A program made the position numbers and the translations under genes. Of a DNA stretch of 64,000 bases, positions 6,831-54,184 are shown piece after piece; position 1 is the first letter of the stretch, and the number at the start of each line of letters is the position of its first letter. Under the pieces are notes generated by a model. That model did no database searches. It was not told the origin of the DNA and was given only the letters and a program-made list of their open reading frames with translations. The stretch comes from Methanothrix sp. (GTDB lineage: Archaea > Halobacteriota > Methanosarcinia > Methanotrichales > Methanotrichaceae). The DNA lies in NCBI GenBank assembly GCA_963682135.1, contig OY821645.1:1056001-1120000 (forward strand), read 5' to 3'.

Positions 6831-6887
6831 TTTACCTCAGACCGAAAAACTCAGAGCGACACCAGAACACTGGAGACCGACAGCGCC

Positions 6888-7316: not shown

Positions 7317-7372
7317 AGCCGCAAAATTAGTCTATCATGCATTTTTAGTTTTTGCCTTCCGAAAATCGCCCC

Positions 7373-7615: not shown

Positions 7616-7737
7616 TGTAGATCCCCTTCACAGTAAAATATTTAGCGCTATAGATATAATGCTTTGCCTACTATTATCGCATATCAACCCCGGTCCCGCC
7701 AAAAAGGTTTTACCTTGGCAGCGTCTTTCAACAGGGA

Positions 7738-9222
7738 ATGTTCAATAAGATCCTGATCGCCAACCGGGGAGAGATCGCCATCCGGGTGATGCGCGCCTGC
7801 CGGGAGCTGGGCATCTCGACAGTGGCCGTCTACTCCGAAGCGGACAAGAACGCCCTTTTCGCCAAATACGCAGACGAAGCAGTCTTCATCGGGCCGGCCC
7901 CCTCCCGCCAGAGTTACTTGAGGATAGACAATATCATTAAAGCCGCGCTTGATACCGGAGCTCAGGCCATCCATCCCGGATATGGCTTTCTTTCAGAAAA
8001 TACGCACTTCGCTGCTGCCTGCGTGGAGAACGGCATCGTCTTCATAGGCCCTCCGTCCTCGTCTATCGATGCCATGGGCTCCAAGATCACTGCCCGCCAG
8101 ACCATGAAAGAAGCGGGCGTGCCAATTGTGCCCGGCATCGAGGAGGGCATCAGCGATCCGGATGAAGCCGTTGATATCGCTGATAAGATTGGCTATCCCA
8201 TTATCCTCAAGCCGGCAGCGGGAGGCGGAGGAATCGGCATGAAGATCGTGCAGAGTCGCGAGGAGCTCTTGCCTGCTTTAACCTCTTCTCAGTCCGTAGC
8301 CAGGAGCGCCTTTGGTGATGACACCATCTACATCGAAAAATACCTGACAGAACCCAGACACATCGAGTTTCAGATCCTGGCCGACAATCATGGAAAGACC
8401 ATCTATGTCTCAGACCGGGAATGCTCCATCCAGCGCCGCCATCAAAAGCTGATTGAGGAGTCCCCTTCGCCCGTTATGACCGAGGAGCTGCGCGAGAGGA
8501 TGGGCTCCATCGCCGTTAAAGCTGCCAAAGCTATCGGCTATTCCAGTGCCGGCACAGTGGAGTTCATGTACTCGCGCGGCGACTTCTATTTCCTGGAGAT
8601 GAATACCAGGCTGCAAGTAGAGCACCCCATCACTGAGATGGTAACCGGCGTGGACCTGGCCAAAGAGCAGATCTTGGTGGCGGCGGGCTATCCTTTGGGA
8701 TATGATCAGTGCGACATGAAGATCAACGGCTGGGCTATCGAATGCCGCATAAATGCAGAGGACCCGCTAAACGATTTTGCTCCCTGTCCGGGAAAGATCA
8801 AGCGCTACCGCAGCCCGGGCGGTCCGGGCATAAGAGTGGACAGCGGAGTTTATACCGGCTATGTCATCCCCCCCTACTACGATTCTCTGATCTCCAAGCT
8901 GGTGGCCCACGGCAAAGACCGCAAAGAGGCCATCGCCCGAATGGAGCGCGCCCTCTTTGAGTACATTATTGTGGGTGTTAAAACCAATCTGATATTCCAC
9001 AAAGCAGTTCTCAGAAATAAGAGGTTTCGCAGCGGAGACATAAACACTCACTTCATCAAGGATGAGAATATCGTCGAGGCCGTCAAGGTTGTGGCAGATG
9101 AGGATTATGAGAAGGGCAAGTCTCTGGCTTCTGCTCTGGGTGCAGACAGCCGTCAGATCGCTGCTATCGCTGCGGCCGTGGGGTCCTACCTCAGCCAGAA
9201 CCGTTCCGAGGAGAAGAGCTGA
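7738..9222 (+). CDS. pycA: Biotin carboxylase (pyruvate carboxylase subunit A type)
   Basis: [49 protein letters not shown]; followed by biotin ligase. Confidence 0.9.
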
Positions 9223-9224
9223 AG

Positions 9225-10202
9225 TTGGCAGCTATCGAGGTCCTCTCATTCTTGACCTCAGGGGAGTGGGTATCCGGTGAAGAGATAGCCAAGAAGCTTG
9301 CCATCTCCCGTGCCGCCGTCTGCAAGCAGGTCCAAACTCTTCGCCAGAGGGGATACGAAATCTCCTCCTCTACCGGGAAGGGCTATCGATTGGACAAAAA
9401 AATCGATTTCTTAGATGCGGATCGCTTCTCTTGCAGCCTCAAGACAAAGTGGCTGGGAAGAGATATGCGCATCTATGACGAGGTCAGCTCCACCAATGCT
9501 GCCGCCTTAGCCGGGGTCCACGACTGTCCCAATGGCACTGTCATCCTGGCCGAGACCCAGACACAGGGCAGGGGAAGGCTCTCTCGACAATGGGCTTCGC
9601 CTCCCGGCGGAATCTGGATGAGTCTCGTCCTGAAGCCGGCAATGCCGCTCAATCATGTCTACCAGATAAACATGGCTGTGAGCGTCGCGCTCTGCCGGGC
9701 CCTCTCCTCTCAGTTCGGCCTGGATGCCGGCATCAAGTGGCCCAACGACCTTTTGATCCGGGAGCTGAAGATCTGCGGAATACTCATGGAGATAGGAGCA
9801 CAGGTGGACCGGCTGGACTATGCCGTGGTGGGATTGGGCCTGAATGCTAACAATGATATATCCCAATTTCCTGCTGAGTGGAGATCAACCACTCTGGCGA
9901 CACAGCTGGGCCACGACATCGACCGATGCGATCTTATCTGCAGAATTCTTGAGGAGATGGAAGTGGCATACGAAAATATGGGAGGCATTGAGATCTTTGA
10001 AGAATGGCGCAGCCGGTCGCTCACCCTGAATAAGCAGGTGCGTATTACCTCTGCGGCTGGCGACCTGGCAGGCGAAGCCGTGGACCTGGCAGAGGACGGT
10101 GCTCTTATCCTCCAAATAGGAGATGAGCAAAAAAGAGTACTGGCTGGAGACTGCATTCATCTGCGAGCCGCTCCGGCTGGGGCGACTGTGGGAGAACGAT
10201 GA
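9225..10202 (+). CDS. birA: Biotin-protein ligase with N-terminal HTH
   Basis: SGEEIA...SRAAV, STN, QTQGRGR..RQWASP, IKWPNDL, KICGIL. Confidence 0.93.
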   Translation: MAAIEVLSFLTSGEWVSGEEIAKKLAISRAAVCKQVQTLRQRGYEISSSTGKGYRLDKKIDFLDADRFSCSLKTKWLGRDMRIYDEVSSTNAAALAGVHDCPNGTVILAETQTQGRGRLSRQWASPPGGIWMSLVLKPAMPLNHVYQINMAVSVALCRALSSQFGLDAGIKWPNDLLIRELKICGILMEIGAQVDRLDYAVVGLGLNANNDISQFPAEWRSTTLATQLGHDIDRCDLICRILEEMEVAYENMGGIEIFEEWRSRSLTLNKQVRITSAAGDLAGEAVDLAEDGALILQIGDEQKRVLAGDCIHLRAAPAGATVGER

Positions 10203-10651
10203 GGCCGAGAAAGGTGCGCGGCATAGCCAGGGATACGCTGCGATTTATCTTGGAGGCGTCCCGCTCCTCTCTGCCCATGGAGTTCGCGGGGCTGCTTCAG
10301 GTTGATGAGGAGATCATCACCGAGGTCCTCATACTGCCCGGCACGGAAAGCTCCCGGATGAGTGCTCTGGTTCGGCTTTACATGCTGCCCAACATGGCTG
10401 TGGCTGGCTCAGCGCATAGCCATCCTTCCGGAGACCTCCGGCCATCTGAGCCGGACCTCATCTTTTTCTCACGTACCGGGGACTTCAACATCATAGTCGG
10501 TCCGCCTTTTGATGAGCAGAGCTTCGTTTGTTACGACGGTGCAGGAAGGCGGCGCGATCTGGCAATTTTAGATGTTGAGTTTAAGGATAGTGGCTTTGAT
10601 GAGGACTTTGAAGATGAATTTGATGATGAATTTAAAGAGGACAAGCCTTGA
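10199..10651 (+). CDS. JAB/MPN (JAMM) domain protein with acidic tail
   Basis: E...HSHPSGDLRPSEPD JAMM motif. Confidence 0.85.
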   Translation: MRPRKVRGIARDTLRFILEASRSSLPMEFAGLLQVDEEIITEVLILPGTESSRMSALVRLYMLPNMAVAGSAHSHPSGDLRPSEPDLIFFSRTGDFNIIVGPPFDEQSFVCYDGAGRRRDLAILDVEFKDSGFDEDFEDEFDDEFKEDKP

Positions 10652-11079
10652 CCCTGGTAGTGGCCACTGGCACCTTTGACCTTCTTCATCCCGGCCATGT
10701 CCTCTACCTGGAGCACTCGCGAGCTTTAGGCGACGAGCTGGTGGTTATTGTTGCCAGGGATGTGAATGTGCGCCACAAGCCCAAACCTATACTGCCTGAG
10801 CAGCAGAGGCTGAGGATGGTATCATCCCTCAAGGTCGTGGATAGTGCCGTGCTGGGCGAGGAGACGGATATCTTCCGCACGGTAGAGCAGCTCAAACCGG
10901 ATATAATCACTTTGGGTTATGATCAGCATTTTGATGAGGCGGCTTTGCAGGCGGAGCTGTTTCGTCGTGGCCTGAATCCCCAAATTGTGCGTATTGAGGA
11001 GCATGAGCCCTGCCCCCTTTGCAGCTCCAGCCGCATTGTAACCAAGGTCTTGGAGCGTTTTCGGGGGCGGCGAATCTGA
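10648..11079 (+). CDS. ribL: Archaeal FAD synthase
   Basis: ATGTFDLLHPGH, PDIITLGYDQ, CPLCSSSRI. Confidence 0.85.
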   Translation: MTLVVATGTFDLLHPGHVLYLEHSRALGDELVVIVARDVNVRHKPKPILPEQQRLRMVSSLKVVDSAVLGEETDIFRTVEQLKPDIITLGYDQHFDEAALQAELFRRGLNPQIVRIEEHEPCPLCSSSRIVTKVLERFRGRRI

Positions 11080-11130
11080 TCTCGGGTGATGCCGTCAAGT
11101 ACTTATACAGCTCTCTCGTTAGCGGGCCTG

Positions 11131-11595
11131 ATGGCCAGAGTTGCAGTGGGAGGAACCTTCGACCCCATTCATGATGGGCATATCTCCTTGCTGAGGCGTG
11201 CCTATGAGTTGGGAGGAGAGGGCGAGGTAGTAATTGGTCTCACCTCCGACGAGATGGCCAGAGAGAGCCGGACGCGCTTCGTGAGCAATTTTGAGGTACG
11301 AACGAAGAATCTGCGGGCGGTCTTAAAGAGGTGCTTTGGCATCGAGCACGCCAACATTATAAAGATAGACGACCAATGTGGATCATCCATCTATGATGAT
11401 TTTGATTTTATCGTCGTCTCTCCGGAGACTCTGCCCATGGCTGAGAAGATCAATCGGCTGAGGGCAAAAAAGAATTTAAAAGGCCTACAGATATCCATTG
11501 TTGAGTATCAGCTGGCTCAGGATCTTGTGCGCATCAGCTCCACTCGCATCTATGAAGGAAAGATTGACAAGCATGGCAAGGTTCTGATCGGTTAG
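11131..11595 (+). CDS. coaD: Phosphopantetheine adenylyltransferase
   Basis: VAVGGTFDPIHDGH, IVVSPET, ISSTRI. Confidence 0.88.
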   Translation: MARVAVGGTFDPIHDGHISLLRRAYELGGEGEVVIGLTSDEMARESRTRFVSNFEVRTKNLRAVLKRCFGIEHANIIKIDDQCGSSIYDDFDFIVVSPETLPMAEKINRLRAKKNLKGLQISIVEYQLAQDLVRISSTRIYEGKIDKHGKVLIG

Positions 11596-29142: not shown

Positions 29143-30744
29143 ATGAGATATATTGTGGTCACAGGCGGGGTTATGAGTGGGCTTGGCAAGGGCATTACTG
29201 CGGCGTCCATTGGCAGGCTGCTCATGAACAGAGGCTATAAGGTTACAGCTATCAAAATCGATCCTTACATCAACATCGATGCCGGGCTCATGAGTCCCTT
29301 TCAGCATGGGGAGGTTTATGTCCTCAAGGATGGGGGCGAGGTAGACCTGGATCTGGGCAACTACGAACGCTTTTTGGATGTAGAACTGACCCGCGACCAC
29401 AACATCACCACCGGCAAGGTTTACAGCACTGTCATTGAAAAAGAGCGCAGAGGCGAGTATCTGGGCAAGACTGTGCAGATCATCCCCCACATCACTGAGG
29501 AGATCAAGAGGCGCATTCGCCAGGTCTCCCGGGACGGGGGCTGCGAGATCTGTCTAATCGAGGTTGGCGGGACAGTAGGTGACATTGAGTCCATGCCTTT
29601 CCTGGAGGCCATGCGCCAGCTCAAGTATGAGGAGACGGGCAATATCTTCTTCGTTCACGTCACTCTGGCTCCTTCCACCATAGACGGCGAGCAGAAAACC
29701 AAGCCCACCCAGCACAGCGTGAAAGAGATGCGCCAGCTGGGTCTACAGCCCGACATGATAGTAGTACGCTGCGAGCATCCCCTCCTGGAGGAGACCAAGC
29801 ACAAGATAGCCCACTTCTGCGATGTGCCCATGGAGGCTGTGATCAGCGCCCACAATGCTGACGACATCTACCGCGTGCCTTTGCAGATGGAGGCAGAGGG
29901 CCTGGCCAGGTACCTCATGAAGGCCATGCGGCTCTTCCCCCTGGAAGAGAGGAAGGACTGGGATGAGTTCGTGCAGAAGATGGACGCCGTGGAGGGCGTG
30001 GTGAAGGTGGCCATTGTGGGCAAATACACCGTGGGCTCGCAGTGTGCCGACCCCATGGAGGATGCCTACCTCTCCATTCGAGAGTCCCTCAAGCACGCCG
30101 GAATTGAGGCAGGAGTGAAGACGGATGTGCAGTGGATTGATGCCGAGGAGCTGGAGCACGGCTCGGCTGACATCATCTTGCGAGAGGCGGACGGCATTCT
30201 GGTTCCGGGCGGCTTTGGCTCCCGCGGCACGGAGGGCAAGATTAAGGCAGTGCAGTATGCCAGGGAGATGAAGGTTCCCTACCTGGGGCTGTGCTTCGGC
30301 ATGCAATTGGCCGTGATCGAGTACGCCAGAAACGTCTGCGGTTTGCAGGGGGCGAGCAGCACTGAGTTCGGGGCCACGCCTAACCCAGTGATCGCTCTAT
30401 TGCCGGAGCAGGAGAAGATCAGGCACATGGGCGCCACCATGCGGCTGGGCAACTATCCGGCCCACCTCAAGGAAGGCAGCCTGGCGCACAGGATTTACGG
30501 CACGGATGAGATCGTGGAGAGGCACCGGCACCGCTACGAGGTCAATCCCGCTTACATCTCCCAGATTGAGGAGAAAGGCATGATCTTTTCAGGAACCAAC
30601 GGGGATCTGATGGAGATCTGCGAGATACCGGAGCATCCTTTCTTCTTTGCTTCGCAATTCCACCCGGAGATGAAGTCACGACCGGGCAAGCCGTCGCCGC
30701 CGTTTCTGGCTTTTGTGGAAGCGATGAAGGGGAAAGCGAAATAA
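29143..30744 (+). CDS. pyrG: CTP synthase
   Basis: [48 protein letters not shown]. Confidence 0.98.
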
Positions 30745-30788: not shown

Positions 30789-33700
30789 ATGTGGACCGTC
30801 AGGGTTGAAGATGTTAAAAATATTGGCCGGACTCCTGGAGGGGATCATTTTACAGAATTTGTAAATTCTCTAATTCGTGGTTGGTCGCATTTGCACGGGT
30901 TGCCATGCTCAGAAATATTTGATAATCAACGCACCAATAAACAAGATGGTGGAGTTGATACCGAAGTTTGCAGATCGATTCTAAACGATCCTTTAGGATG
31001 GATGGGCAATCCAACCATTTGGCAGTATAAAGCCACAGATTCGAGCGAGGTCTCTGAAAGTAAATTGGTAACTGAAATTAAAAAGTGGTATGTTGTTGAA
31101 TGCATTAATCAAGGTTATGCTTATCGATTTTGCATATGTGATAGCATTCCTAGCTATATGAAGAAATCCTGGGAAGACATCTTGAACAGAGAAATTAAAA
31201 GAATAAATGCAAATGCGCCTAATGCTAAGGTTTTAACTGCTGAGGATTTGGCGCAATGGGCTAGTCGTCTACCCGCAATAAATCTGCGTTATTTCCATCC
31301 GAGAATAGCTACATTAGGTTTGCATTTCGAAGCATGGGGAAAAAGTATTACAGAAATCACTCCCGAGTTCGTAAGATATCCCGCAATAGATGGAATCATA
31401 AATGAGATCCAAAATCACGTCAATTTTGGGATAATCGCGCCAAATGTAGTGTTACCTGTATCCGGTCTATCGGGTGTTGGCAAAACTAGACTCGTCTATG
31501 AGAGTTTGCTATTGTGTGATGGTACTAAATCACTTGTAATTTTCACTAACGATGAGTATAAAGCCGTTGAAATAGCGATGACTATCTCAAACAATTCTAT
31601 GATAAATGCGATTCTTGTAGCAGACGAGTGCGGACTCAATGGACGTTTGAGATTAATCGATTTGCTGCGCGGTCACAAAGATAGAGTTCGGGTTATTACA
31701 ATAGATAATTCCGGAGTACGACCGGATACTGGTTCACCAGAATTATGGATCGAAAAAATGCCTCCCGAAATTGTGGACGAAATCTTAGTTAAGAACTATC
31801 CAGGTGTGCCTATTGGGCGGAGGAGAGCTTATACTGATTTGTCTAAGGGATTTGTTAGGTTTGCTGCGGATTTATGTCGAAATGATAATATGATTGCATC
31901 GTCTGGGTGCGTGGACCCTGCTCTACGCGATATCAGAGAATACCTTAGAAAAAGATTCTCTTCAGAAGAATTGAAAGTGATTCAAGCATTATCTTTGGTA
32001 AAGAAAATCGGGTATTTGGGCGATGTTTCCCATGAATTATCGGCATTATGCGAGACAGTTAACCTAGAACCTGAAAACTTCAAAGAAATCGCAACGCGGA
32101 TCCACAATGGTCCAGGATTTATTTCGAAAGCAGGAAGATATCTTTATGTAACACCAGAAATTATCGCGCAGACGGGATTTGATCTGGCATGGAACAATTG
32201 GATCAGTGATGATCCCGAAAGCTTTCTTAAAAAGTTGCCGAAAATACTACTTGAATCATTTTATTTGCGAACAAGGGAAAGCGCATCGGAGGTGGTCAGA
32301 ACCACAATTGGGGACTTCTTTCGAAAATGGTCATTCGAACTCAGACATAGCCAACTCAATTCGGTCGAAGCGGTCAATCGCCTAATAACTCTAATCGAAG
32401 TTGAACCTAGAATTTATTTGCCAGTCCTTCGAAACCTTATTGAACAATCAACACTAGAAGAACTCAAGAGTATAAGTGGGAAAAATAGGGATGGCAATTA
32501 CGGCCCAAGACGTTCCATTGTATGGCTGGCCGAGAGGATTGCAGCATTTCCTGAATACTTCGATGATGCCGAGAACATTTTGCTTAGATTGGGTTTAGCC
32601 GAATCGGAGAAAAATATAGGAAATAATGCAACCGCTATTTGGAGACAACTTTATAGGATCGCGTTGTCAGGCACTGCGGTACCCTTTTTGGCTCGATTAA
32701 ATCGACTTGAGCTGAGAATCTTATCATATGAAGATGAAACCTCTCATTTTGCTATTGGTGCGCTAGATGGAATACTAAATGATCATGCAATGCGTAGGGC
32801 AGGGCCTTCAATAGTCGCAGGAAAAATACCTCCCGAGGAGTACGTCCCAAATACTAATGATGAATATATCAAGTGTATATCTGAGACTTTTAAATTATTG
32901 CGTAGAATAATTAACCATGCTAGCATTCCGGATGACATAAAAAGGAGCGCTAAATATACGGTAGTAGATAATACAAGAACTTTACTTAATTTAGGTTTAG
33001 CGGACGAGTTACAGGTTACACTTTCTGAAAGAAATATTGATAACGACTTAAGAGCGAAATTGATTGAAAACATTGAAACGTTCTTGCACTTTGATATTAA
33101 AGCCAAATGGGGACGACCAGCACTTGCTGATGATTACGTAAAAAAAGTGGATATGTATCTTGCAAACCTAAAGCCGTCTGACGTTGGAGGACGAATTAGT
33201 ATTGTTGTAGGAACTTGCCGAGGTCATTACTCAATTTTGGGTAACGAAGATAAATTGGAATCGGAAGTAGAGTCGCTTGCCAAAGAATTCTTAGAGCACC
33301 CAGAAAACTTAAAGCAAGAGATTGAGACACTATTTTCCCCAGATGCTAAGAATGCCTCAAGCTTCGGCTACGGTCTTGGCAAATTAGATAAAAATGCTAT
33401 ATTTTTAGATTTCATAATTGAGTCGAGTATTAAATATAATTCCACAGAATTCGGCAGAGGATATCTGAGTGGTATTTTGGATTCATATCCGAGCCATGCG
33501 GATTTCATTAATAAAAAATTTGATGAAATCCAAATGGAATACCCCGTTTTAGCTTATGAATTATTCATGACGAGAATTGAATTAACTAATGCATTGGAAA
33601 GGGCACTTAAATTAGTCGATTTAGGAAAACTGGGACCCATCTACCTGGGTCGATTTATTTATGGTAAAGGGGAACACCAATTATCACAAAATAGTTTTAG

Positions 33701-34502
33701 AAATATACTTCAGAGACTGGTTGGTGCTGCTATTAAAGGGGATGCGCCCTCAATTAAGGCCGCGTTAGAATTTATCTCGTTTAGGATATTTAGCGAAAAG
33801 GAAGGTAAAATAGGACAAATATTAGATCAAGATGATATCAGGTCACTCGCTTGGAGGCTTATTGAAATCACTCCTAAGAAGGCCAAGTCATACGAATGGA
33901 CACAAATAATTGAGGCATTGTCAAAATATGACCCAGATCGAGCTGCAAAGTTGGCGGTTCTTGGACTAGCCGAAGGAGACCTTTTGCAATTGGGTGATTT
34001 TATCTCTTTTTTTACATCCTTGGCAAAGATGCATCCTGAATTAGTAATGCAGAGGCTCGGAGAAGTAATGCTCGACGAAGAAAAGGGATGGATTTTCTAC
34101 ACATACAAATTTAGTCCATTTTTCAAAGCCATTCCGGATGAGTCTATAATTAAATGGGTGAAGGATCATGGAGTCGAAGGAGCACGCCGATTAGCAAACC
34201 ACTTGCCTGCGCCTTACGTTTCCGACAATGGAGATGCAATTGTTCCAAATATTACTCAATTTATCCTAGATAATTATGGGGATGATGATAGAGTATTTAA
34301 TCAGTTTGCACTTGGTATGCATTCATTTCAATTATATTCTGGAGATATAGCTTCTCAGCACGACAGAGAAGCTGAAATCGCTCGAACATTTTTAAGCCAT
34401 CCTTCTGAGAGAATAAGGAAGTGGGCTCAAATGGAAGAAGAGAATGCAATTTCTGAAGCCAAAAGATGGAGGCAATTCGAAGAAGAAAGACAACTTGATT
34501 AG
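30789..34502 (+). CDS. Large putative defence protein: N-terminal PD-(D/E)xK-like nuclease, P-loop NTPase, long helical C-terminus
   Basis: DGGVD...IWQYKA, Walker A GLSGVGKT, Walker B ILVADE; visibly AT-richer than flanking genes. Confidence 0.7.
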   Translation: MWTVRVEDVKNIGRTPGGDHFTEFVNSLIRGWSHLHGLPCSEIFDNQRTNKQDGGVDTEVCRSILNDPLGWMGNPTIWQYKATDSSEVSESKLVTEIKKWYVVECINQGYAYRFCICDSIPSYMKKSWEDILNREIKRINANAPNAKVLTAEDLAQWASRLPAINLRYFHPRIATLGLHFEAWGKSITEITPEFVRYPAIDGIINEIQNHVNFGIIAPNVVLPVSGLSGVGKTRLVYESLLLCDGTKSLVIFTNDEYKAVEIAMTISNNSMINAILVADECGLNGRLRLIDLLRGHKDRVRVITIDNSGVRPDTGSPELWIEKMPPEIVDEILVKNYPGVPIGRRRAYTDLSKGFVRFAADLCRNDNMIASSGCVDPALRDIREYLRKRFSSEELKVIQALSLVKKIGYLGDVSHELSALCETVNLEPENFKEIATRIHNGPGFISKAGRYLYVTPEIIAQTGFDLAWNNWISDDPESFLKKLPKILLESFYLRTRESASEVVRTTIGDFFRKWSFELRHSQLNSVEAVNRLITLIEVEPRIYLPVLRNLIEQSTLEELKSISGKNRDGNYGPRRSIVWLAERIAAFPEYFDDAENILLRLGLAESEKNIGNNATAIWRQLYRIALSGTAVPFLARLNRLELRILSYEDETSHFAIGALDGILNDHAMRRAGPSIVAGKIPPEEYVPNTNDEYIKCISETFKLLRRIINHASIPDDIKRSAKYTVVDNTRTLLNLGLADELQVTLSERNIDNDLRAKLIENIETFLHFDIKAKWGRPALADDYVKKVDMYLANLKPSDVGGRISIVVGTCRGHYSILGNEDKLESEVESLAKEFLEHPENLKQEIETLFSPDAKNASSFGYGLGKLDKNAIFLDFIIESSIKYNSTEFGRGYLSGILDSYPSHADFINKKFDEIQMEYPVLAYELFMTRIELTNALERALKLVDLGKLGPIYLGRFIYGKGEHQLSQNSFRNILQRLVGAAIKGDAPSIKAALEFISFRIFSEKEGKIGQILDQDDIRSLAWRLIEITPKKAKSYEWTQIIEALSKYDPDRAAKLAVLGLAEGDLLQLGDFISFFTSLAKMHPELVMQRLGEVMLDEEKGWIFYTYKFSPFFKAIPDESIIKWVKDHGVEGARRLANHLPAPYVSDNGDAIVPNITQFILDNYGDDDRVFNQFALGMHSFQLYSGDIASQHDREAEIARTFLSHPSERIRKWAQMEEENAISEAKRWRQFEEERQLD

Positions 34503-34589
34503 ACTTGGGGATTGATAACTATATAAATTTTTCACATCCTTTGATATATCCATCAATCCTCCCTCGCACTTCTCTCAGGTTCCAGGCCC

Positions 34590-34668
34590 TTTTTGCCGGG
34601 GCCCCAGGGCGGCCACGGGCACCCGTGCCCGTGCGCCCGCGCGTGCACCTGCGGGTGGGCGGGGCCAA
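34590..34668. repeat. GC-rich structured intergenic repeat, copy A
   Basis: Contains perfect inverted repeat cacgggcac-cc-gtgcccgtg; ends gcacctgcgggtgggcggggcc, similar to 37066-37082. Confidence 0.6.
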
Positions 34669-34794
34669 CCGACTTAATCTGAATATGGGCGTTTACGCTA
34701 AACATATTCCCGTTCAAGCCTAAAGCTATTTTAACTCGTTTCGCCATCTTCTGGAAGAGATGCGGTAAGATAATTTGCCAAGAGGGAGCTGCAA

Positions 34795-35889
34795 ATGACC
34801 CGAAAGTACTGGCTGGATCTTTTTACAGGAACAACCTGGGAGGAATTCCTGGAGCACGGCGCAAAAGTAAGCGGCTTTAGGGAGAGCAGGAAAAAATCGG
34901 CGCAGAGGATCTCCCCAGGCGATTATCTCCTCTGCTACTTAACCGGCATTTCACGGTTTGTCGGCATCCTGGAAGTCAAGTCAAAATGCTATTCAGATAC
35001 CACCCCAATCTGGAAAGATGAGCTTTTCCCGATCCGCTTTGAGGTCGAGCTGGTGGAAAGATTGGAGGCAAAAACGGCGATTCCCGTCCTCAGCCTCAAA
35101 GATGAACTGGAGCTATTCAAGGGGCTGAAGTCCAGGAATGCCTGGACGGGATTTTTCAGGGGATCTCCTGCCGAATTTAACCCAAAGGACGGAGAAATAA
35201 TTTCCAGTGCCATCAGAAACGCCGTTAAAAATCCGGTTGAACTGGAATACGACGAGCGGAAGTACCGCCGCAAAACTAAGACATACGAATCAAAGATCGG
35301 CGTGGTGACAGTGCCCGAGGATCATGAGGAGGATACCAAGAAGGCCCCGCTCGAAGAGACCACTCATGAAGAGATCCAGTTTCTATTGCTCAAGCTAGGC
35401 TCGGACCTGGGCCTGGATGTGTGGGTTGCCAGGAACGACCGCAACCGCAATTACAATGGAATCAATTTTCAGGACGTTGCTAATCTGAGAAGGGAGCTTC
35501 CCAGGCAGTTTGATGATGCCACCAACAGAACCATTGAACTGATTGACGTTCTCTGGCTGCAAGGCGATGCCATAATAGCCGCCTTCGAGGTGGAGCATAC
35601 CACGGCCATTTACTCAGGCTTGCTGCGGATGTCGGACCTGGTGAGCATGCAGCCCAATATCAAGCTCGATCTCTTCATGGTCGCACCGGATGAGCGGCGA
35701 GAGAAGGTGTTCTACGAGATCAACCGGCCCACCTTCGCCAGGCTTAAGCCTCCCCTCCCGAAGATCTGCCGGTTCATTCCATATTCAGAGCTGAAGAGGG
35801 AAGTAGAGCAGATCGGAAGCAGAATGCGCTACATGAAGCCGGAGTTCATCTCTGAGATTGCAGAAAGCTGCGAGCCGGAGGATTCGTGA
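34795..35889 (+). CDS. EVE-domain protein with C-terminal restriction-endonuclease-like domain
   Basis: KYWL...TWEEF...ISPGDYLLCY (EVE/PUA-like); IDVLW...AAFEVEHTT..YSGLLRMSDL (PD-(D/E)xK-like). Confidence 0.8.
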   Translation: MTRKYWLDLFTGTTWEEFLEHGAKVSGFRESRKKSAQRISPGDYLLCYLTGISRFVGILEVKSKCYSDTTPIWKDELFPIRFEVELVERLEAKTAIPVLSLKDELELFKGLKSRNAWTGFFRGSPAEFNPKDGEIISSAIRNAVKNPVELEYDERKYRRKTKTYESKIGVVTVPEDHEEDTKKAPLEETTHEEIQFLLLKLGSDLGLDVWVARNDRNRNYNGINFQDVANLRRELPRQFDDATNRTIELIDVLWLQGDAIIAAFEVEHTTAIYSGLLRMSDLVSMQPNIKLDLFMVAPDERREKVFYEINRPTFARLKPPLPKICRFIPYSELKREVEQIGSRMRYMKPEFISEIAESCEPEDS

Positions 35890-36027
35890 GCGTGGACGGG
35901 CGGGCGGGGATGGCTGGAGCGCCCTGGATTCGCGGGACCAGGCCCGCGCGCGAGTCATCCGCTAATTCCAGGCGACAAAATGGTCCAGGAGCTTGCTGGA
36001 TAAAACCAGAGGTTAGATCCTGGAGGG

Positions 36028-36291
36028 CTATCGTCCCTGCACATATCCTCGCTCCCTGAGAAATGCGTTTTGGACCCATACCGTTGCATCCTCCACAAAA
36101 TACTCAAATCGGTGCTCACCGATTCTCAGGCGATAGACATCATGCGTCTTGCCTTTGAGCTTCTTGATATCCAGACCGCTTCTGGATGTAAATGGGTCAT
36201 CGCCCAATCTGGCAAGTCCTTCTTTTAGTCTCTCTTTTTCACCGCTCTCATCCAGGTACTTCTTGACTCTAGGATGGACTTGAACCTGCAT
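36028..36291 (-). CDS. RelE/ParE-family toxin
   Basis: DIKKLKG...YRLRIGEHR; start at MQVQV overlaps antitoxin stop. Confidence 0.85.
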   Translation of the reverse strand: MQVQVHPRVKKYLDESGEKERLKEGLARLGDDPFTSRSGLDIKKLKGKTHDVYRLRIGEHRFEYFVEDATVWVQNAFLRERGYVQGR

Positions 36292-36494
36292 CAGACTTCT
36301 TCCAGAGGTATGAAATCCGTCTTCTCTTTCTGCAGCCGCTCCCATCTGGCCTCGATGATCTCCTCCAGATCACCTTCCTCATAGAATCTGATCAGCCTCT
36401 GCAAGACTTCATCTTCTGTCTCACTGCCACGAGCCAGAAGCTTTAAGCGGATCTTGATGTCTTCATTGACGTGAATCGTTGCGCCCATTGTCAC
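36291..36494 (-). CDS. Putative RHH-type antitoxin
   Basis: ATIHVNEDIKIRL...SETEDEVLQRLI...FIPLEEV; directly upstream of toxin. Confidence 0.8.
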   Translation of the reverse strand: MTMGATIHVNEDIKIRLKLLARGSETEDEVLQRLIRFYEEGDLEEIIEARWERLQKEKTDFIPLEEV

Positions 36495-36654
36495 ACCATA
36501 CCAGGGTTCATTTTGCCGCTTTTCTCAGTTAAACGTTTTCATGGCCTCCGATAAAAATTATTTTGTAATAGGCCATAATGCCATATGACTGCACTATGCA
36601 TTTTCATGATCGACCCCCTGAAGTGAGGCCCATCATGGCCATCTACCCTGGCCT

Positions 36655-36892
36655 GCCCAACATCAAGCTCGATCTCTTCATGGTCGCACCGGATGAGCGG
36701 CGGGAGAAGGTGTTCTACGAGATCAACCGGCCCACCTTCGCCAGGCGTAAGCCGCCCCTCCCGAAGATCTGCCGGTTCATTCCTTACTCGGAACTGAAGA
36801 AGGAAGTCGAGCAGATCGGGAGCAGAATGCGCTACATGAAGCCGGAGTTCATCTCTGAGATTGCGGAAAGCTGCGAGCCGGACTACTCATGA
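36655..36892 (+). repeat. Diverged 238-bp copy of the 3' end of the EVE-nuclease gene (35652..35889)
   Basis: Manual alignment: gap-free, 15 codons differ, 11 of them synonymously. Confidence 0.95.
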
Positions 36893-36974
36893 ATTGCCGC
36901 TGTGCTTCCAGCTCGGCCACCATTTTTGACCGATCCAATCCAACTGCCACCTAGATTTTCGGGACTGCAAAGCC

Positions 36975-37083
36975 CTGCGCCCTTACCCCACGCCCCTGAT
37001 TTCCGCCGACGGGCTGCCCACGCTGCTCCCGGGCACGCGCCCGCACACCTGCCAGCGCACCCGTGGGTGGGCGGAGGGCCGCC
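36975..37083. repeat. GC-rich structured intergenic repeat, copy B
   Basis: cgcccttacccc...gatttccgccg...ggcacgcgcccg...cccgtgggtgggcgg, shared with copy C. Confidence 0.75.
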
Positions 37084-37134
37084 TGGCATCGCAAGTTAGT
37101 AGTAATAATGCCAACACATTCAATTCTGACGATC

Positions 37135-37494
37135 ATGATTCTCACTTCCAAGAAAATCCTGGACATCCACGAGCTGATAATCAGCAATTTTGGCGGTTTG
37201 GACGGAGTTCTTTGTCAGGGTACGATCGATTACCTGGTCGATCAGATAAATGCAGAGTCTGATCATTTTCGCAAAGCGGCTCTCGCTCTGCATATCGTGG
37301 CTAACTGCCACCCATTCCTGGATGGAAACAAGAGATCGGCCTTTCAAATAGCAGAATTAATCCTGAGCAGTGAAGGATACGCCATCATCGCAAAAGATGA
37401 TGAAATAATCCATATGCTTCTAAGAATCGCCAGTTACCAGTGCCAGGTTGATGAAGTCAAATTCTGGCTTCTAAAGAACACCGCTCAACTCTGA
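37135..37494 (+). CDS. Doc/Fic-family toxin
   Basis: HPFLDGNKRSA motif; ILDIHE...FGG..GV N-terminus. Confidence 0.9.
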   Translation: MILTSKKILDIHELIISNFGGLDGVLCQGTIDYLVDQINAESDHFRKAALALHIVANCHPFLDGNKRSAFQIAELILSSEGYAIIAKDDEIIHMLLRIASYQCQVDEVKFWLLKNTAQL

Positions 37495-37498
37495 GCAC

Positions 37499-37645
37499 TC
37501 ACATTTCGGCTAAACGCTTCATTAGTTTTTCATTGCGCCGCATGCTTTCTTCAAGGCGCTGTCTCTCGCCAGGGCTTAGGCCTTCAATTTTATTTGCAGA
37601 TATCTCTTGCTCCCTCCTTGATCCAGGAGTTGGTTGCCCTGACAT
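37499..37645 (-). CDS. Small putative antitoxin-like protein (48 aa), convergent with doc
   Basis: MSGQPTPGSRREQEISANKIEGLSPGERQRLEESMRRNEKLMKRLAEM, read manually; degenerate second copy near 39150-39200. Confidence 0.55.
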   Translation of the reverse strand: MSGQPTPGSRREQEISANKIEGLSPGERQRLEESMRRNEKLMKRLAEM

Positions 37646-37668
37646 GAAACACTACAGGCTTGCTGGGA

Positions 37669-38052
37669 TTAAATAGCTATTTGCGAGACGATCCTGGCCG
37701 CGTACCCAATCGCCGCCCGCACATCCTCCTGCTCTATCCTATACTCTCGGGCAGTTTCCTCGATCTGCATGCCTCCGGCCAGCGCGCCCAGGATGACAAC
37801 CACAGGAACCCGCGTTCCTCGTATGACGGGCTTGCCATGCGCGATCTCAGAATCGAGGACGATCCGCTCATCTCGCTGCAGGGGAATATCCCAGCCCTCA
37901 TAGCCGCTCTCCTCCCAGTCACGGTGGAGTTCTTCTATAAACGCCTCATTGTAATTGGTCTCGCCCACAAAGCCGCAAAACTTACTGGTTTTTGATTGCC
38001 TGCAAGCTGCGGCCTTGTCACCTGCAATTTCATCTTCAGTCTCATCGGTCAT
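37669..38052 (-). CDS. DUF433-domain protein with apparently unrelated N-terminal part (chimera)
   Basis: RIVLDSEIAHGKPVIRGTRVPV...EDVRAAIGYA. Confidence 0.75.
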   Translation of the reverse strand: MTDETEDEIAGDKAAACRQSKTSKFCGFVGETNYNEAFIEELHRDWEESGYEGWDIPLQRDERIVLDSEIAHGKPVIRGTRVPVVVILGALAGGMQIEETAREYRIEQEDVRAAIGYAARIVSQIAI

Positions 38053-38434
38053 ATTGGCGGCATCCTGTTTTCTCTTTTTTCATCCACTCGATTCCCAGAA
38101 AGATCTCGTCAATTGTAAGATCGCAAACATGAGAGCGCTCTTTGCTGTAGTCGCCTTTCCCAGAATTTTGGCTCTGCCAAAGGCGAGTAGCATCTACCAT
38201 GCTATGGCATTCTTCATGCGGGTCAGGGTGTTTTTCATTGCTGTTCGCAGTCGCTTCGCTATCATCGTCATCATAATTCCAGATTTCCGACTCGATGATC
38301 TCATCAATCAGCTTCTGGTCGTCAAGCTGAATCGAACCTGCCAGCCGCTCAGCGATGCTCAATTTCTTGTCCATTACTACCGCCAACTCCATATCCAATT
38401 CTATTCCAGCCCCAGTGCCTATGCGAGCCCGCAC
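38042..38434 (-). pseudogene. Mosaic ORF of antitoxin fragments
   Basis: LAGSIQLDDQKLIDEIIESE duplicates the C-terminus of the AbrB ORF at 38574; GKGDYSKER...DLTIDEI resembles another small antitoxin-like family. Confidence 0.55.
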
Positions 38435-38573
38435 GCAGCCGCAAGCGGTGTCGATGATGGGCAGATGCTATTATGGTTTATAAATGCAAATATCTTCTGC
38501 TTGCTGAAAATCGTTATCATTATCTATAAGTATCTTGGATTGGGGCATAGCAAATCCAGAGAGCCAATCACAG

Positions 38574-38786
38574 CTAATCCTCGGATTCGATAATCTCTTC
38601 TATAAGTTTTTGATCGTCTAATTTGATTGAGCCTGTAAGTTGATCAGTAAGGCTTTTGATCGGCTTGATGAGCAATTCTCCACCATTCACACTCAAAGCT
38701 ACTCGTTTGCCTTCACAAAGGTCGATCTCAGACAATATTGAACTGGGAAGCTCAATTATCCCGCCTTTCTTAACAATAACCTCCAT
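38574..38786 (-). CDS. AbrB/MazE/SpoVT-family antitoxin
   Basis: VKKGGIIELPSSI...L.EG.RV...GELLIKP. Confidence 0.8.
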   Translation of the reverse strand: MEVIVKKGGIIELPSSILSEIDLCEGKRVALSVNGGELLIKPIKSLTDQLTGSIKLDDQKLIEEIIESED

Positions 38787-38917
38787 CGATCTCACCAACA
38801 TTACTAATATGCCCCTGCCTATAAAAATAGATTTCCAAATTATGAGTGCCTAGGCGAGACGGACAGGCAAAATAGGTCGTCTTCCAGACCAGCAGCCATC
38901 CCCCGGCAGTGGCCCGA

Positions 38918-39014
38918 CCGCGCCCTTCCCCCCCGCGCCACCGGATTTCTGCCGGGAGATCGCCCCGCCGCCCCAGGCACGCGCCCGGCCCCCGTGCGTG
39001 CGCTCCCGTGGGTG
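38918..39014. repeat. GC-rich structured intergenic repeat, copy C
   Basis: cgcccttcccccc...gatttctgccgg...ggcacgcgcccg...cccgtgggtg aligns with copy B. Confidence 0.75.
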
Positions 39015-39045
39015 AACATGTAGCGTTCCAATGGACGCAACCGCA

Positions 39046-39312
39046 AGATAATCCAAATGCTGCTAAGAATCGCCAGTTACGAGTGCCGGGTCGATGAAGT
39101 CAAAATCTGTCTTGAGAAAAACGCGGGCGGAATCTGAAAGGAACGCTTGCATTTCGGCTGAACGCTTCATGAGTTTTTCATTGCGCTGCATGCTTTCTTT
39201 AATTTCTGTCTTCTCGTTCTTCAGATGGGCTTTGATCTGCTTGGATTAAATAGCTTCTTGAGAGACGATCTTTGCCGCGTACCCGATCGCCGCCCGCACA
39301 TCCTCTTGCTCC
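39046..39312. pseudogene. Degraded second copy of doc 3' end + small antitoxin 3' end + DUF433 3' end
   Basis: Aligns in order with ~37403-37494, ~37502-37550 and ~37666-37733. Confidence 0.85.
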
Positions 39313-39348
39313 TTCTGGTGAGGCAAGCAGCAATAAATATCAGAAGTA

Positions 39349-40098
39349 ATGAGGCATATCCGTATGGAAAACACCATTATTAGGCAAAGGATCCGGAAGA
39401 TGTTGATTATTCTCTCATTTGTCCTATTGCCGGCTACATTTGTATATATATCCTGTCCGATAATAATACAAGGCGCATCTGAAGGGATTGTTACCGGTGG
39501 CCTGATCCTCTTTATCCTCCTCTTTATCAGTTCCCTATTCCTGGGCAGGCTCTGGTGCGGCTGGCTCTGTCCAGGAGGCGGTCTGCAAGAGATTTATTTT
39601 GATATAAATAATAAAAATGTCAAAGCAAGCAGGCTAAACTGGCTTAAGTATCTCATATTCCTTGCAGTTATTCTCATCCCCCTCATCTCTGCAATTCGCT
39701 CCGCGGGAGGATTTACCACTATTGATCTTTTTTATAACACAGATCATGGAATCTCAATCGCCAAACAGGGAGCGTACGTAATATTCTTCGTCCAAATCGC
39801 TTTCTTTACCGTATTTGCCATGCTGGGCGGAAAACGGGGTTTCTGTCATTATTTCTGCCCGATCGCAGTGATAATTATCACCGGAAGGAAGATTCGAAAT
39901 CTGATCCGCTGGCCGGCTCTTCACCTCTCAGCTATTGGGAGCCGTTGCACCGACTGAAATAAATGCTCAATAAACTGCCCCATGGGGCTTGATGTGAACA
40001 TCATGGTCCGACAAGGGCGAATGGAAAACACGGAGTGCATACTCTGTGGCGTCTGCGCGGATGTCTGCCCGAAACAAGCGATCCACTATGAATTATAA
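39349..40098 (+). pseudogene. Membrane 4Fe-4S binding (polyferredoxin/NapH-like) protein interrupted by in-frame TGA at 39955
   Basis: GRLWCGWLCP, FCHYFCP, then CTD-TGA-NKCSINCP...ECILCGVCADVCP to TAA at 40096-40098. Confidence 0.85.
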
Positions 40099-52821: not shown

Positions 52822-53034
52822 TCATACTCTCATCCATTCTTCCCTCAAAGCAGCGCTCTCTTTTTTGACATCCACCTTCAAGTCCTTGTACATTCCCCTA
52901 TATTTCGACGGATCCCAATTGGTTTTCTCCTCTTGGTCCCGGCTGACCAGATAGCTTATTTTGTTCCATAGATTGATTGGAATAATTACCCCTGTCTTCC
53001 TGCCATCTTCATCATAAACATATTGCACTTCCAT
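52822..53034 (-). CDS. Small hypothetical protein, antitoxin-like
   Basis: QYVYDEDGRKTGVIIPI..W...LREEW. Confidence 0.6.
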   Translation of the reverse strand: MEVQYVYDEDGRKTGVIIPINLWNKISYLVSRDQEEKTNWDPSKYRGMYKDLKVDVKKESAALREEWMRV

Positions 53035-53107
53035 TTCAATCACAACCGGGCGGTATTTTTAAATATACTTAATATAACTAATCATATATTAAACAGTTGC
53101 GTTTCCA

Positions 53108-53264
53108 TTATTTTGCCGCTTCCTCCACAATCCCGATCTCTTCTTCCGTCAGGTCGTAAAGCTCGTACACCAGCATGTCGATCTGCCGGTCGGTGGCCTC
53201 GATCCGGCGGACGAGCAGCGTCCTGTCGTGATCGGTGCCTGATGATGCCTGCTTGTGAAGATCG
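53108..53264 (-). pseudogene. 3' fragment of type IIG (Eco57I/TaqI-C-like) restriction-modification gene, copy 2
   Basis: RRIEATDRQIDMLVYELYDLTEEEIGIVE, the characteristic type IIG C-terminus. Confidence 0.8.
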
Positions 53265-53525
53265 TCATATGTTGTATGCGTAATCGTGATGATCAAAGTT
53301 AACGAACCAGACTTCTGCGATAATAATCTTATAAATGATAACCCAATTTCCGACATGGGCGCTTCGATAACCAGCAAGGTTTTGCGTAAGTGTTTCTCCA
53401 ATATCAGGATTTTGCAGGATATCTCTAATCTTTTTAAGAGTTCTTTCTTTCAAAACGGCATTCTTTTTGGTCAGGCGCTTAAAATTTTTGTCGAAAAGAG
53501 GTGACGATTGCGGCGAATAATTCAT
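53265..53525 (-). CDS. RelE/StbE-family toxin
   Basis: F.KNFKRL...NPDIGE.L...LAGYRSAHVGNWVIIY...DHHDYAY. Confidence 0.85.
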   Translation of the reverse strand: MNYSPQSSPLFDKNFKRLTKKNAVLKERTLKKIRDILQNPDIGETLTQNLAGYRSAHVGNWVIIYKIIIAEVWFVNFDHHDYAYNI

Positions 53526-53531
53526 GCAAAT

Positions 53532-53696
53532 CTACAAGTTTGAAAGGTGCTCTATGAATTCGTCCGCATTTTTAAAGCGCTTTCCAAGACCCGCCCGAAG
53601 CTCTGCATCTCCTTTTAAGGTATTGGCTACGATGCGCTCATCATCTTCGATAGACCTGTATTTCGTTTCTGGCTTCTTGATAGTCTTTGCCATCAT
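53532..53696 (-). CDS. Putative antitoxin (54 aa)
   Basis: MMAKTIKKPETKYRSIEDDERIVANTLKGDAELRAGLGKRFKNADEFIEHLSNL, read manually; 6 bp upstream of toxin. Confidence 0.75.
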   Translation of the reverse strand: MMAKTIKKPETKYRSIEDDERIVANTLKGDAELRAGLGKRFKNADEFIEHLSNL

Positions 53697-53752
53697 TTAG
53701 GATCGCCAAATATGTACTTCGACTCTCCGCTTTAAAGACTTTCGCCGGACAT

Positions 53753-54000
53753 TTACCTGCTCGCTTCCTACACAATCCCTATCTCTTCATCTGTCAGGTC
53801 GTAAAGCTCGTACTACCTGCCTGTCGATCTGCCGGTCGGTGGCCTCGATCCGGCGGGCGAGGAGCGTCTTGTCGTGATCGGTGCCGGTGGAGGCAAGCTT
53901 GTGAAGATCGAGCATGGTCTGCACCAGCTCCACCAGGCGGTCGTGGCGGGCGACGTCTGCAGGGTCGGAGAAGTCGATGGTGCGGATCGGGAGTGGTGAC
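53753..54000 (-). pseudogene. 3' fragment of type IIG restriction-modification gene, copy 1 (frameshift plus amber stop)
   Basis: LPIRTIDFSDPAD.ARHDRLVELVQTMLDLHK...IEATDRQID, then 1-nt insertion before YELYDLTDEEIGIV-TAG. Confidence 0.8.
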
Positions 54001-54184
54001 ACGTATTGATGCATCTCACGCGGTGCAGACACGGCAACATATCCCTCATTCAGCGCTCCATGGATAGAAGATACGAAAAAGGTTTTGCTGGCTGATAAAA
54101 TTCATTCGTGTAAATAAAAACGTTTAATTGTAATAGTAGAAAGAGGAACAAAATTTGATACAAAAAAGCTAAAAACTAATAAAA

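Follow-up and report, generated by a model that had tools for sequence, protein, structure and literature searches.

The stretch of DNA that we analysed, hereafter the window, is 64 kb of Methanothrix sp. (assembly GCA_963682135.1, contig OY821645.1, positions 1,056,001-1,120,000); it carries archaeal genes (topoisomerase VI, RFC, thermosome, Nop56/58, YcaO-TfuA) and is from a Methanothrix-type archaeon. Downstream of pyrG lies a variable island of defence and toxin-antitoxin (TA) genes, in which the 3' end of a nuclease gene is present twice, in the same orientation, on either side of a RelE-like TA module. The explanation that we favour, with confidence somewhat better than even, is that this arrangement is an old recombination scar in a hypervariable island, not a new kind of system for capturing cassettes, and that the detached gene end has been kept gene-like by gene conversion from the intact gene. 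For comparison we used the 16 related loci (L001-L016) that are closest in the genome collection, all of them from metagenome bins of Methanothrix or Methanotrichaceae; L001 was joined to L014, which is of the same assembly, through an exact 55-nt overlap of the contigs.

The nuclease gene, its remnant and the module between them

The intact gene (34795..35889, + strand) encodes a protein of 364 aa with an EVE domain (Pfam EVE, E 5.4e-7) and a PD-(D/E)xK-type nuclease, the restriction-endonuclease-like C-terminal half being recognised by a PADLOC REase_II match to residues 190-318 (E 8.5e-18). The family is large and conserved, with 6456 homologues at E<=1e-3 and 65-97% identity among the 120 matches listed. 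The last 238 nt of the gene (35652-35889, copy A) recur as a direct repeat at 36655-36892 (+ strand, copy B, codons 287-364), 1003 nt away and at 93% identity. A chance repeat is ruled out by the length, the identity and the lack of gaps.

A preliminary description of this DNA had reported the gap-free recurrence of 238 bp and a preponderance of synonymous differences, and both observations are confirmed. The two copies differ at 16 of 238 nt, spread over 15 codons, of which 11 are changed synonymously and 4 are not; the longest exact run that they share, read from the positions of the differences, is 44 nt. At the protein level 4 of 78 residues differ, in a tail that is highly conserved across the family. 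The dN/dS comparison that had been proposed gave, by the Nei-Gojobori method, 12 synonymous and 4 nonsynonymous changes (dS 0.29, dN 0.022), a synonymous excess over the neutral expectation with a binomial p = 6.6e-6. Slow silent divergence of the tail was rejected as the cause of the similarity: over the same 78 tail codons allele A differs from the alleles of L002, L003 and L004 by a dS of 1.2-1.4, which is not below that of the rest of the gene (0.98-1.25).

The 238 nt are the high-identity part of the second copy, but homology runs further upstream, to 36586 (codon 254), so that copy B sits within a longer remnant (36586-36892) spanning codons 254-364 of the nuclease gene. The homology back to 36586 gave a local alignment score of 35, compared with 21.7 +/- 3.1 and a maximum of 32 for 200 shuffles. 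In the local alignment the 5' part of the remnant (36586..36654, + strand, codons 254 to about 276) is about 65-69% identical to the gene and lacks 30 nt, and the divergence steps sharply at 36655, from 11 of 36 positions beside the repeat to 16 of 238 inside it (Fisher p 1.3e-4). Because the protein stretch encoded in this zone (AAFEVEHTTAIYSGLLRMSDLVSMQ) is near-invariant in 20 full-length homologues from several phyla, the changes at 36586-36654 represent decay and not allelic or natural variation. Copy B itself carries the replacement L317R at a nearly invariant position.

Beyond its stop codon, copy B continues into the flank that follows the nuclease gene elsewhere: 36655-36988 aligns to the single gene end and its flank in L004, L013 and L015, and copy B is therefore in the ancestral position. 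A full tandem copy that was deleted internally and kept its 5' end was considered and rejected, since the matches of 36495-36585, the region upstream of the antitoxin, to the promoter and 5' part of the nuclease gene are no longer than 7-9 nt, as expected by chance. The preliminary description had named the simple deletion of a full-length tandem paralogue as the case that would overturn it, and in the form that keeps the 5' end this case falls away.

The module between the copies, together with its upstream region, occupies 35964..36585 on the - strand. It comprises two small, co-oriented ORFs (open reading frames) that overlap by 55 nt, one for a RelE/YoeB-like toxin of 105 aa (36028..36345) and one for a DUF7557-like antitoxin of 67 aa (36291..36494). 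All of the family matches are below cut-off: the toxin has a weak match to TIGR02116 (YoeB/Txe; E 8e-4, 19.6 bits vs a cut-off of 51.8) and matches archaeal structures in the PDB at E 0.078 (RelE3) and E 0.15 (aRelE), and the antitoxin scores 24.4 bits vs a cut-off of 25. What had been described as a complete RelE-type pair thus stands as two overlapping minus-strand ORFs, but with a weak family assignment, by sequence similarity, of 36028-36494 as a RelE/YoeB-like type II TA pair.

On its left side the module abuts a truncated copy of a GC-rich non-coding element that is normally found 3' of the nuclease gene. Aligned with the other copies of the element, the truncated copy (copy b, 35890..35963, + strand) ends at the left junction of the module, which reads 'GCGCGCG|AGTCATCC', lies inside the core of the element and is the same in the window and in L001.

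A shared junction and tails that group by genome

The right-hand junction, between the TA module and codon 254, is also found in other lineages. In L014 the junction, the decayed zone and the 30-nt deletion are those of the window, and L012 shares the end of the module up to 36613, after which come a further deletion and a scrambled stretch of its own, with high identity resuming at about codon 309. The contig of L013 starts within 2 nt of the codon-254 boundary and reads as a pseudogene from W254 on, with an in-frame stop and changes at invariant residues. The junction is common to the window, L014, L012 and L013 and is therefore older than the divergence of lineages that now have 87-90% identity in pyrG; the shared sequence points to one old event as the simplest reading. 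Independent insertion of a TA module in the window and in L014 was rejected, as the junction, the decayed zone and the 30-nt deletion are all shared. The preliminary description had proposed that a unit of gene tail and TA cargo was captured repeatedly, and a single old event runs counter to this.

Loci that lack the module are also present in the sample, as the preliminary description had anticipated. A tblastn search found no RelE or antitoxin in eight loci (L002, L004, L006-L011) over 1.6-10 kb downstream of the nuclease gene, and in L004, L013 and L015 a single tail is followed by the flank of copy B. The expectation of variable cargo was borne out: in one other assembly a PIN-antitoxin pair is present besides the RelE pair, the joined L001 and L014 giving the order nuclease gene, GC-rich element, PIN-antitoxin pair, partial GC-rich element, RelE pair and remnant.

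Remnants with other boundaries occur elsewhere. One remnant in L012 (L012a) breaks at codon 237 and is a recent copy, identical to L001 at 515 of 532 positions; the remnant in L015 breaks at about codon 301, is identical to L004 at 378 of 437 positions and stands in a locus with no full gene; and L010 has a decayed remnant from about codon 257, directly after the stop codon of a HepT toxin gene. In L015 and L012a the truncated tail is preceded by DNA other than a TA module. The breakpoints, at codons of about 237, 257 and 301, therefore mark no att-like point, and with the non-TA neighbours they speak against the suggestion that the ends of defence genes serve as att-like landing pads. All 5 of the 5 orphan fragments that lie away from contig edges (the L010 fragment, L012a, L012b, L014 and L015) are 3' parts of the gene and none is a 5' part. 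The contigs of L001, L012, L013 and L014 begin or end in or next to the tail, and the right flank is not conserved among the loci that were fetched. The nuclease gene itself is degraded in L016 (10001-10858), where it is left as four pieces at 44-84% identity, and in L010 (2935-4036) it has an apparent frameshift near codon 320; some lineages can therefore do without it.

Identity between the window and L014 was computed region by region. It is 98.1% in the toxin coding sequence (312/318), 98.7% in the non-overlapping part of the antitoxin coding sequence (147/149) and 95.1% upstream of the antitoxin (117/123), and then falls to 73.5% in the decayed zone (25/34), 92.0% in the tail (219/238) and 45.7% downstream (53/116). 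For reference, pyrG of the window is 87% identical to that of L012, which is of the same assembly as L014. The recently shared stretch, about 35939-36619 at 95-98% identity, is the TA module alone, with both tails outside it. To judge from these identities, this pattern indicates a recent horizontal exchange of the RelE-antitoxin module alone between Methanothrix lineages, and it fits the homologous exchange of a patch between genomes that already had the architecture, not a travelling unit of tail and TA genes.

The tails themselves group by genome and not by position. Nine quartet sites pair the two window copies against the tails of L014 and L001, one site supports the positional grouping and none supports the third; in a maximum-likelihood tree of the 238 nt, the window copies pair with 57% bootstrap, and the tails of L014, L007, L012a and L001 group with 80%. 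Tails inside the other assembly differ from one another by 5-8 nt and from the window copies by 15-24 nt, with copy A and the L001 tail differing at 21 of 238 positions. The grouping thus points to gene conversion in which the resident intact gene was the donor and the remnant the recipient. Such conversion would account for the synonymous bias between copies A and B, because it imports sequence that has evolved under purifying selection, and for the sharp step in identity at 36655, because the 30-nt deletion limits the conversion tracts. Copy B had been taken as the tail of a once-functional allele and not as a decayed recent duplicate. It does indeed not look like a recent duplicate in free decay, but its bias is better explained by conversion.

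Under the recombination-scar explanation, a RelE-type TA module would have become lodged once, in an ancestor of several lineages, between the nuclease gene and a second copy of its 3' part. The second copy would run from codon 254 through the stop codon into the core of the GC-rich downstream element, so that, in formal terms, about 0.4-0.6 kb of the target would have been duplicated upon insertion. As a pseudogene, this copy would have decayed neutrally at its 5' edge, its last 238 nt being repeatedly overwritten by conversion from the intact gene 1 kb upstream and the 30-nt deletion setting the 5' limit of the conversion tract. Further change in the island would have come from homologous exchange between repeated segments (gene tails and GC-rich elements) and from illegitimate deletions that truncate genes from the 5' side, and the TA module itself may recently have been exchanged between lineages. 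The anatomy, the common junction, the gradient of decay, the grouping of the tails by genome, the empty sites and the variable cargo are observations, whereas both the mechanism of the original insertion and a tendency of addiction by the TA pair to favour the keeping of flanking scraps are things that we infer.

Several points weigh against this explanation. The pairing of the two window copies has a bootstrap of just 57% on 238 nt, and the copies still differ at 16 sites, 11 of which are states peculiar to A; the conversion was therefore not recent, or copy A later exchanged sequence, which is a further assumption. An ATG-started frame is kept in all three remnants of this junction type, which could instead reflect selection for a small protein. 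The duplication event itself was not observed, and 35905-35938, between the stop codon of the copy A gene and the RelE module, is covered by the window contig alone. Finally, the related loci are metagenome bins, and the join of L001 and L014 rests on a 55-nt overlap.

Other repeats and genes of the island

All three of the long, diverged, non-genic pairs of direct repeats in the window flank TA genes. The preliminary description had seen the architecture of the nuclease site again at 53108-53910 and, in nested form, at 36900-39312. The repeats exist at both places, but no intact gene is present at the former, and strong synonymous bias is confined to the nuclease tail. At the former site 53117-53264 and 53762-53910 are 89-92% identical and flank a ParE/YafQ-type toxin gene and a small ORF upstream of it. 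Read along the minus strand, the order is a longer fragment, a 54-aa ORF, the ParE-type toxin gene and a short tail. The longer fragment (copy 2, 53753..54032) is an orphan end of a type IIG restriction-methylase gene (PADLOC REase_MTase_IIG, E 7.5e-9) with a 1-nt frameshift and an in-frame stop. The 54-aa ORF (53532-53696) has no family match and is a putative antitoxin gene from its position alone; the toxin gene (53265-53525) matches Pfam ParE_toxin and TIGR00053; and the short tail (copy 1, 53108..53272), directly after the toxin stop codon, is an orphan C-terminal end of 54 aa of the same type IIG gene, matching the last positions of the same profile (E 9.3e-7). Neither copy is attached to an intact gene, and a general rule that incoming DNA leaves the resident gene intact, as had been suggested, does not hold here. 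The differences between the copies are 9.2 synonymous vs 15.8 nonsynonymous. Just downstream of the short tail there is a RelB-like antitoxin ORF (52822-53043; Pfam E 1.8e-4, under the cut-off), beside which no toxin gene is recognisable as a partner.

At the second site 37405-37734 and 39048-39311 are 80-89% identical. Here a unit of GC-rich element, Doc gene, 48-aa ORF and end of the DUF433 gene (36893-37734) recurs 1.6 kb downstream with internal deletions, as a degraded second copy (38840..39311, + strand) that holds element copy d and the tails of the Doc gene, the 48-aa ORF and the DUF433 gene. The two Doc tails differ by 6 synonymous and 12 nonsynonymous changes. Both this site and the type IIG site look like ordinary decaying duplicates or replaced alleles.

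Further TA-type genes follow in this part of the island. They comprise a Doc/Fic gene (37063-37494, + strand) and, on the - strand, the 48-aa ORF (37499-37645), a DUF433 gene (37669-38052), a 130-aa ORF (38042-38434) and an AbrB/MazE-like antitoxin gene (38574-38801), and the TA-type genes of 37063..38801 have syntenic homologues in L002, L004, L013 and L016. The start of the 130-aa ORF (…L.GSI.LDDQKLI.EIIESE…) matches the C-terminus of the AbrB/MazE-like antitoxin next to it. Relatives have a PIN toxin gene after this antitoxin gene that the window lacks, and from its sequence the 130-aa ORF looks like another fusion left by deletion.

The GC-rich elements form a family with a core of about 45 nt (...GGCACGCGCCCGCACGC...GCGCGC[T/A]CCCG[C/T]GGGTGGGC). 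Besides the truncated copy at the module, the window has copy a at 34572..34681 (core 34645-34660), copy c at 36893..37100 (family match 36972-37097, core 37057-37072) and copy d within 38840..39311 (family match 38875-39029, core 39002-39017), all on the + strand. In relatives, elements lie at L001 2536, L002 11176, L004 12853, L007 1069, L012 8668, L013 561, L014 1109, L015 9622 and L016 14241. Twelve of 13 core matches are on the + strand and all are inside the island, usually between TA modules or 80-240 nt past the stop codon of the nuclease gene. The consensus folds into a 6-bp stem with no covariation or compensatory change, and the copies share extended sequence and not structure only. 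A coding function for the elements was rejected because closely related copies differ by 1-nt indels, in an alignment judged by eye.

The conserved left anchor of the island is pyrG itself, which encodes CTP synthase (29143..30744, + strand; Pfam CTP_synth_N and GATase), and a nuclease gene or remnant lies downstream of pyrG in 7 of the 16 loci (L002, L003, L004, L005, L012, L015 and L016). The slot between pyrG and the nuclease gene is filled differently from genome to genome: with an OLD-type ATPase and a UvrD helicase in L002, an AbiJ-like protein in L004, an AAA_15/AAA_21 ATPase in L012 and a pentapeptide-repeat protein in L015. In the L002 slot (5889-9583) the OLD-family ATPase/TOPRIM gene adjoins the UvrD-type helicase gene, as in a Gabija-like pair. 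The window slot holds a low-GC ORF of 1237 aa (30789..34502, + strand), a candidate defence gene with a PADLOC match to PD-Lambda-4_A (E 3.3e-18) and no match in Pfam and NCBIfam scans. Its GC content is 0.38-0.40, compared with about 0.52 in the surroundings, and it is probably a recently acquired defence gene beside pyrG. Because the content of the slot varies, and because AbrB-PIN, Doc and DUF433 modules are found 3' of the nuclease gene in relatives, we regard the locus as a variable defence and TA island.

As the preliminary description had stated, there is no integrase nearby: no integrase or transposase family was recognised among the 81 window ORFs scanned, nor among the 64 ORFs scanned in the related loci. 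The window also has no tRNA gene and no Rfam match at the gathering threshold, that is, no known RNA family or tRNA gene as a target for integration. A plasmid or phage origin of 34500-39400 was rejected, as blastn searches against plasmid and phage collections gave no match.

Competing explanations and related systems

The interpretation offered in the preliminary description is partly supported, and its central idea deserves to be weighed in its strongest form: units of gene tail and TA cargo would be mobile by host homologous recombination, a circle being released by recombination between the flanking tails and re-entering an intact copy of the gene by a single crossover, and the ends of defence genes would in this way accumulate arrays of TA genes. 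We consider this unlikely. It draws on the order of longer copy, TA genes and 5'-truncated tail at both the nuclease and the type IIG sites, on the presence of empty sites and variable cargo, on the HepT gene of L010 that leads directly into a remnant near codon 257, on the association of all three repeat pairs with TA genes, on a TA module that is 98% identical where pyrG is 87% identical, and on the lack of an integrase among the 81 ORFs. However, the shared junction and 30-nt deletion trace the copies in the window, L014 and L012b to one event, and the recent sharing ends at 35939 and at about 36619, excluding both tails (92% identity to L014 for the tail, and 21 differences in 238 positions between copy A and the L001 tail). 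The differing breakpoints, the non-TA neighbours in L015 and L012a and the lack of an intact gene at the type IIG site also tell against it. A broader form, which we hold to be less likely again, is that the TA pairs of this archaeal lineage propagate as units of gene end plus TA genes by host homologous recombination alone, the ends of defence genes and GC-rich elements providing portable homology, a circle arising by excision between the flanking repeats, loss being penalised by TA killing and re-entry into any intact copy recreating the duplication. If so, the remnant boundaries at codons 254-257, beside the RelE pair in the window and HepT in L010, would mark a preferred entry region. A one-sided allelic replacement is an alternative account of how the scar arose, and one that leaves room for gene conversion afterwards. 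Homology-facilitated illegitimate recombination is a mechanism from the bacterial literature; here DNA of another strain, with its own full nuclease allele and a TA pair downstream of it, would have recombined by homology on the pyrG side and joined illegitimately within the resident gene, whose 3' end would survive as copy B. The ancestral flank of copy B, the varying defence genes of the pyrG-nuclease slot, the cutting of the nuclease gene from its 5' side by unrelated DNA in L015 and L012a, the 3' origin of all 5 of 5 orphan fragments away from contig edges and the divergence of allele A from other alleles (dS 0.9-1.25 over codons 1-286) would all suit this account. Yet at least two lineages that now carry different full-length alleles have inherited the junction from before they separated, so that allele A may have come independently of the TA pair, and no donor arrangement, with the TA pair followed by DNA other than the tail, is present among the 16 loci; we judge it decidedly doubtful.

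Three further explanations carry much less weight. The tail might be a working small gene, encoding a C-terminal nuclease peptide of about 56-104 aa that is expressed from upstream of the antitoxin gene and held under purifying selection. An ATG-started frame does run into the tail in the window (36578-36892), in L014 (589-876), where a 1-nt deletion and a 1-nt insertion compensate to restore the frame, and in L012 (about 9735-9880), where an ATG replaces the codon exactly at the start of high identity; furthermore, the differences between copy B and the L014 tail, its positional counterpart, are mostly synonymous (15.5 vs 3.5 nonsynonymous). These frames may be a coincidence or a hint of expression. 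Against a small gene stand the grouping of the tails by genome and not by position, the in-frame stop and changes at invariant residues in L013, the L317R replacement in copy B and the different starting points of the three ORFs, and we think it very unlikely. That strain variants of one gene end were stitched into one contig by the assembler seems to us extremely improbable. It is true that the related records are metagenome bins, that the contigs of L001, L012, L013 and L014 break at these repeats and that repeated GC-rich elements could mislead an assembler. The junction from the antitoxin upstream region into the remnant or tail, however, recurs on contigs of another assembly (L014 and L012), the longest exact run between A and B is 44 nt, and the decayed edge and deletion peculiar to the remnant are not expected from strain mixing. 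Least credible of all is an integron-like array with the GC-rich elements as attC-type sites and an integrase elsewhere, an explanation that we regard as largely refuted. The elements do lie between modules on one strand, 12 of 13 core matches being on the + strand and all in the island, and the left junction of the RelE module falls inside an element core in the window and L001. An attC site is characterised by complementary R'' (RYYYAAC) and R' (GTTRRRY) boxes 40-130 nt apart. No such pair is present in 34500-39400, the sole pair in the window being inside the 1237-aa ORF, and the elements were rejected as attC sites on this ground and because their 6-bp stem lacks covariation or compensatory change, extended sequence being shared instead; nor is there an integrase among the 81 window ORFs. 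According to PMC9668308, whose text has 0 occurrences of Methanothrix, the cassettes of archaeal integrons commonly carry TA and restriction functions.

Set against known systems, the recombination scar is closest to the 'insertion with long target duplication' of restriction-modification genes. As set out in the main text of PMC2853133 (Furuta, Abe and Kobayashi 2010, citing Nobusato et al. 2000), restriction-modification genes lie there between direct repeats of 46-423 bp that are 94-100% identical and often include the 3' end of a neighbouring gene, empty-site genomes carry a single copy, and no transposase or integrase is present; the authors suggest a cycle in which the genes insert, are amplified through the repeats and are released. 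No archaeal case passed selection in their screen, and the work is summarised in PMC3874152. The likeness is that an addiction-type pair lies here between long direct repeats with no transposase or integrase. Of the features used in that screen (PMC2853133), repeats of >30 bp are found here as the 238 nt at 93%, or about 307 nt with the decayed edge, plus part of the GC-rich element. An empty site is provided by L004, where the single nuclease gene (9919-11085) aligns to 34707-35879, 10858-11193 aligns to 36655-36988, and no RelE or antitoxin is found within 10 kb downstream. The insert, at about 0.6-1.0 kb, is well within the limit of <20 kb without mobility genes, the 81 window ORFs including no integrase or transposase family. 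R and M homologues in the insert are lacking, the cargo being a RelE/YoeB-like toxin and a DUF7557-like antitoxin. The present case thus differs in that its cargo is a type II TA pair and not R and M genes, its host is an archaeon, its repeats are 80-93% identical, the similarity at the nuclease site is best explained by later conversion, and the junction is old and shared across species. The decayed edge likewise suggests that the copy is old, and the repeats are older than those of the restriction-modification cases and have been reshaped.

Other comparisons are looser. In the 'minimal mobile elements' of Neisseria, variable loci between conserved genes are exchanged via the flanks. Streptococcus suis reportedly has a variable defence locus between conserved genes that is exchanged by homologous recombination in the flanks (PMC5398294). 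The island resembles these in having an anchor, pyrG, then a slot with differing defence genes and no mobility genes; it differs in that its right flank is not conserved and replacement has repeatedly cut the next gene, leaving 3' remnants. In pilE/pilS-type systems an expressed gene evolves in concert with 5'-truncated silent copies. A 5'-truncated copy near an intact gene and the exchange of sequence by gene conversion are features held in common with these, but here the inferred direction is from gene to remnant, and with 4 of 78 residues differing there is no generation of diversity and no set of variants that would alter the expressed protein. An integrative element that uses the 3' end of a gene as its att site is not indicated, given window ORFs without an integrase, a longest exact run of 44 nt and breakpoints that differ. 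Arrays of integron cassettes or CALINs, archaeal examples of which are described in the text of PMC9668308, are similar in that a recurring non-coding element, in a single orientation, separates small TA modules with no adjacent integrase; here, however, attC boxes, an attC-like hairpin and an integrase are all lacking, and the repeated flanks are gene ends. A literature search of main texts, without supplements, yielded no account of archaeal TA pairs flanked by diverged gene-end repeats.

Were the explanation by mobile units true, 'insertion with long target duplication' would extend from bacterial restriction-modification genes to archaeal TA pairs, and the life cycle hypothesised for those genes would have its first counterpart among TA pairs and in archaea. 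Under the recombination-scar explanation, the locus offers a base-by-base view of how, in a methanogen, a defence and TA island is reshaped where no dedicated mobility genes are present. Genes are cut from one side, and their ends persist beside addiction modules, kept similar to the live gene by conversion. A low dN/dS between a gene and a nearby fragment is then no proof that the fragment was recently functional, and repeats of this kind break metagenome assemblies at predictable points.

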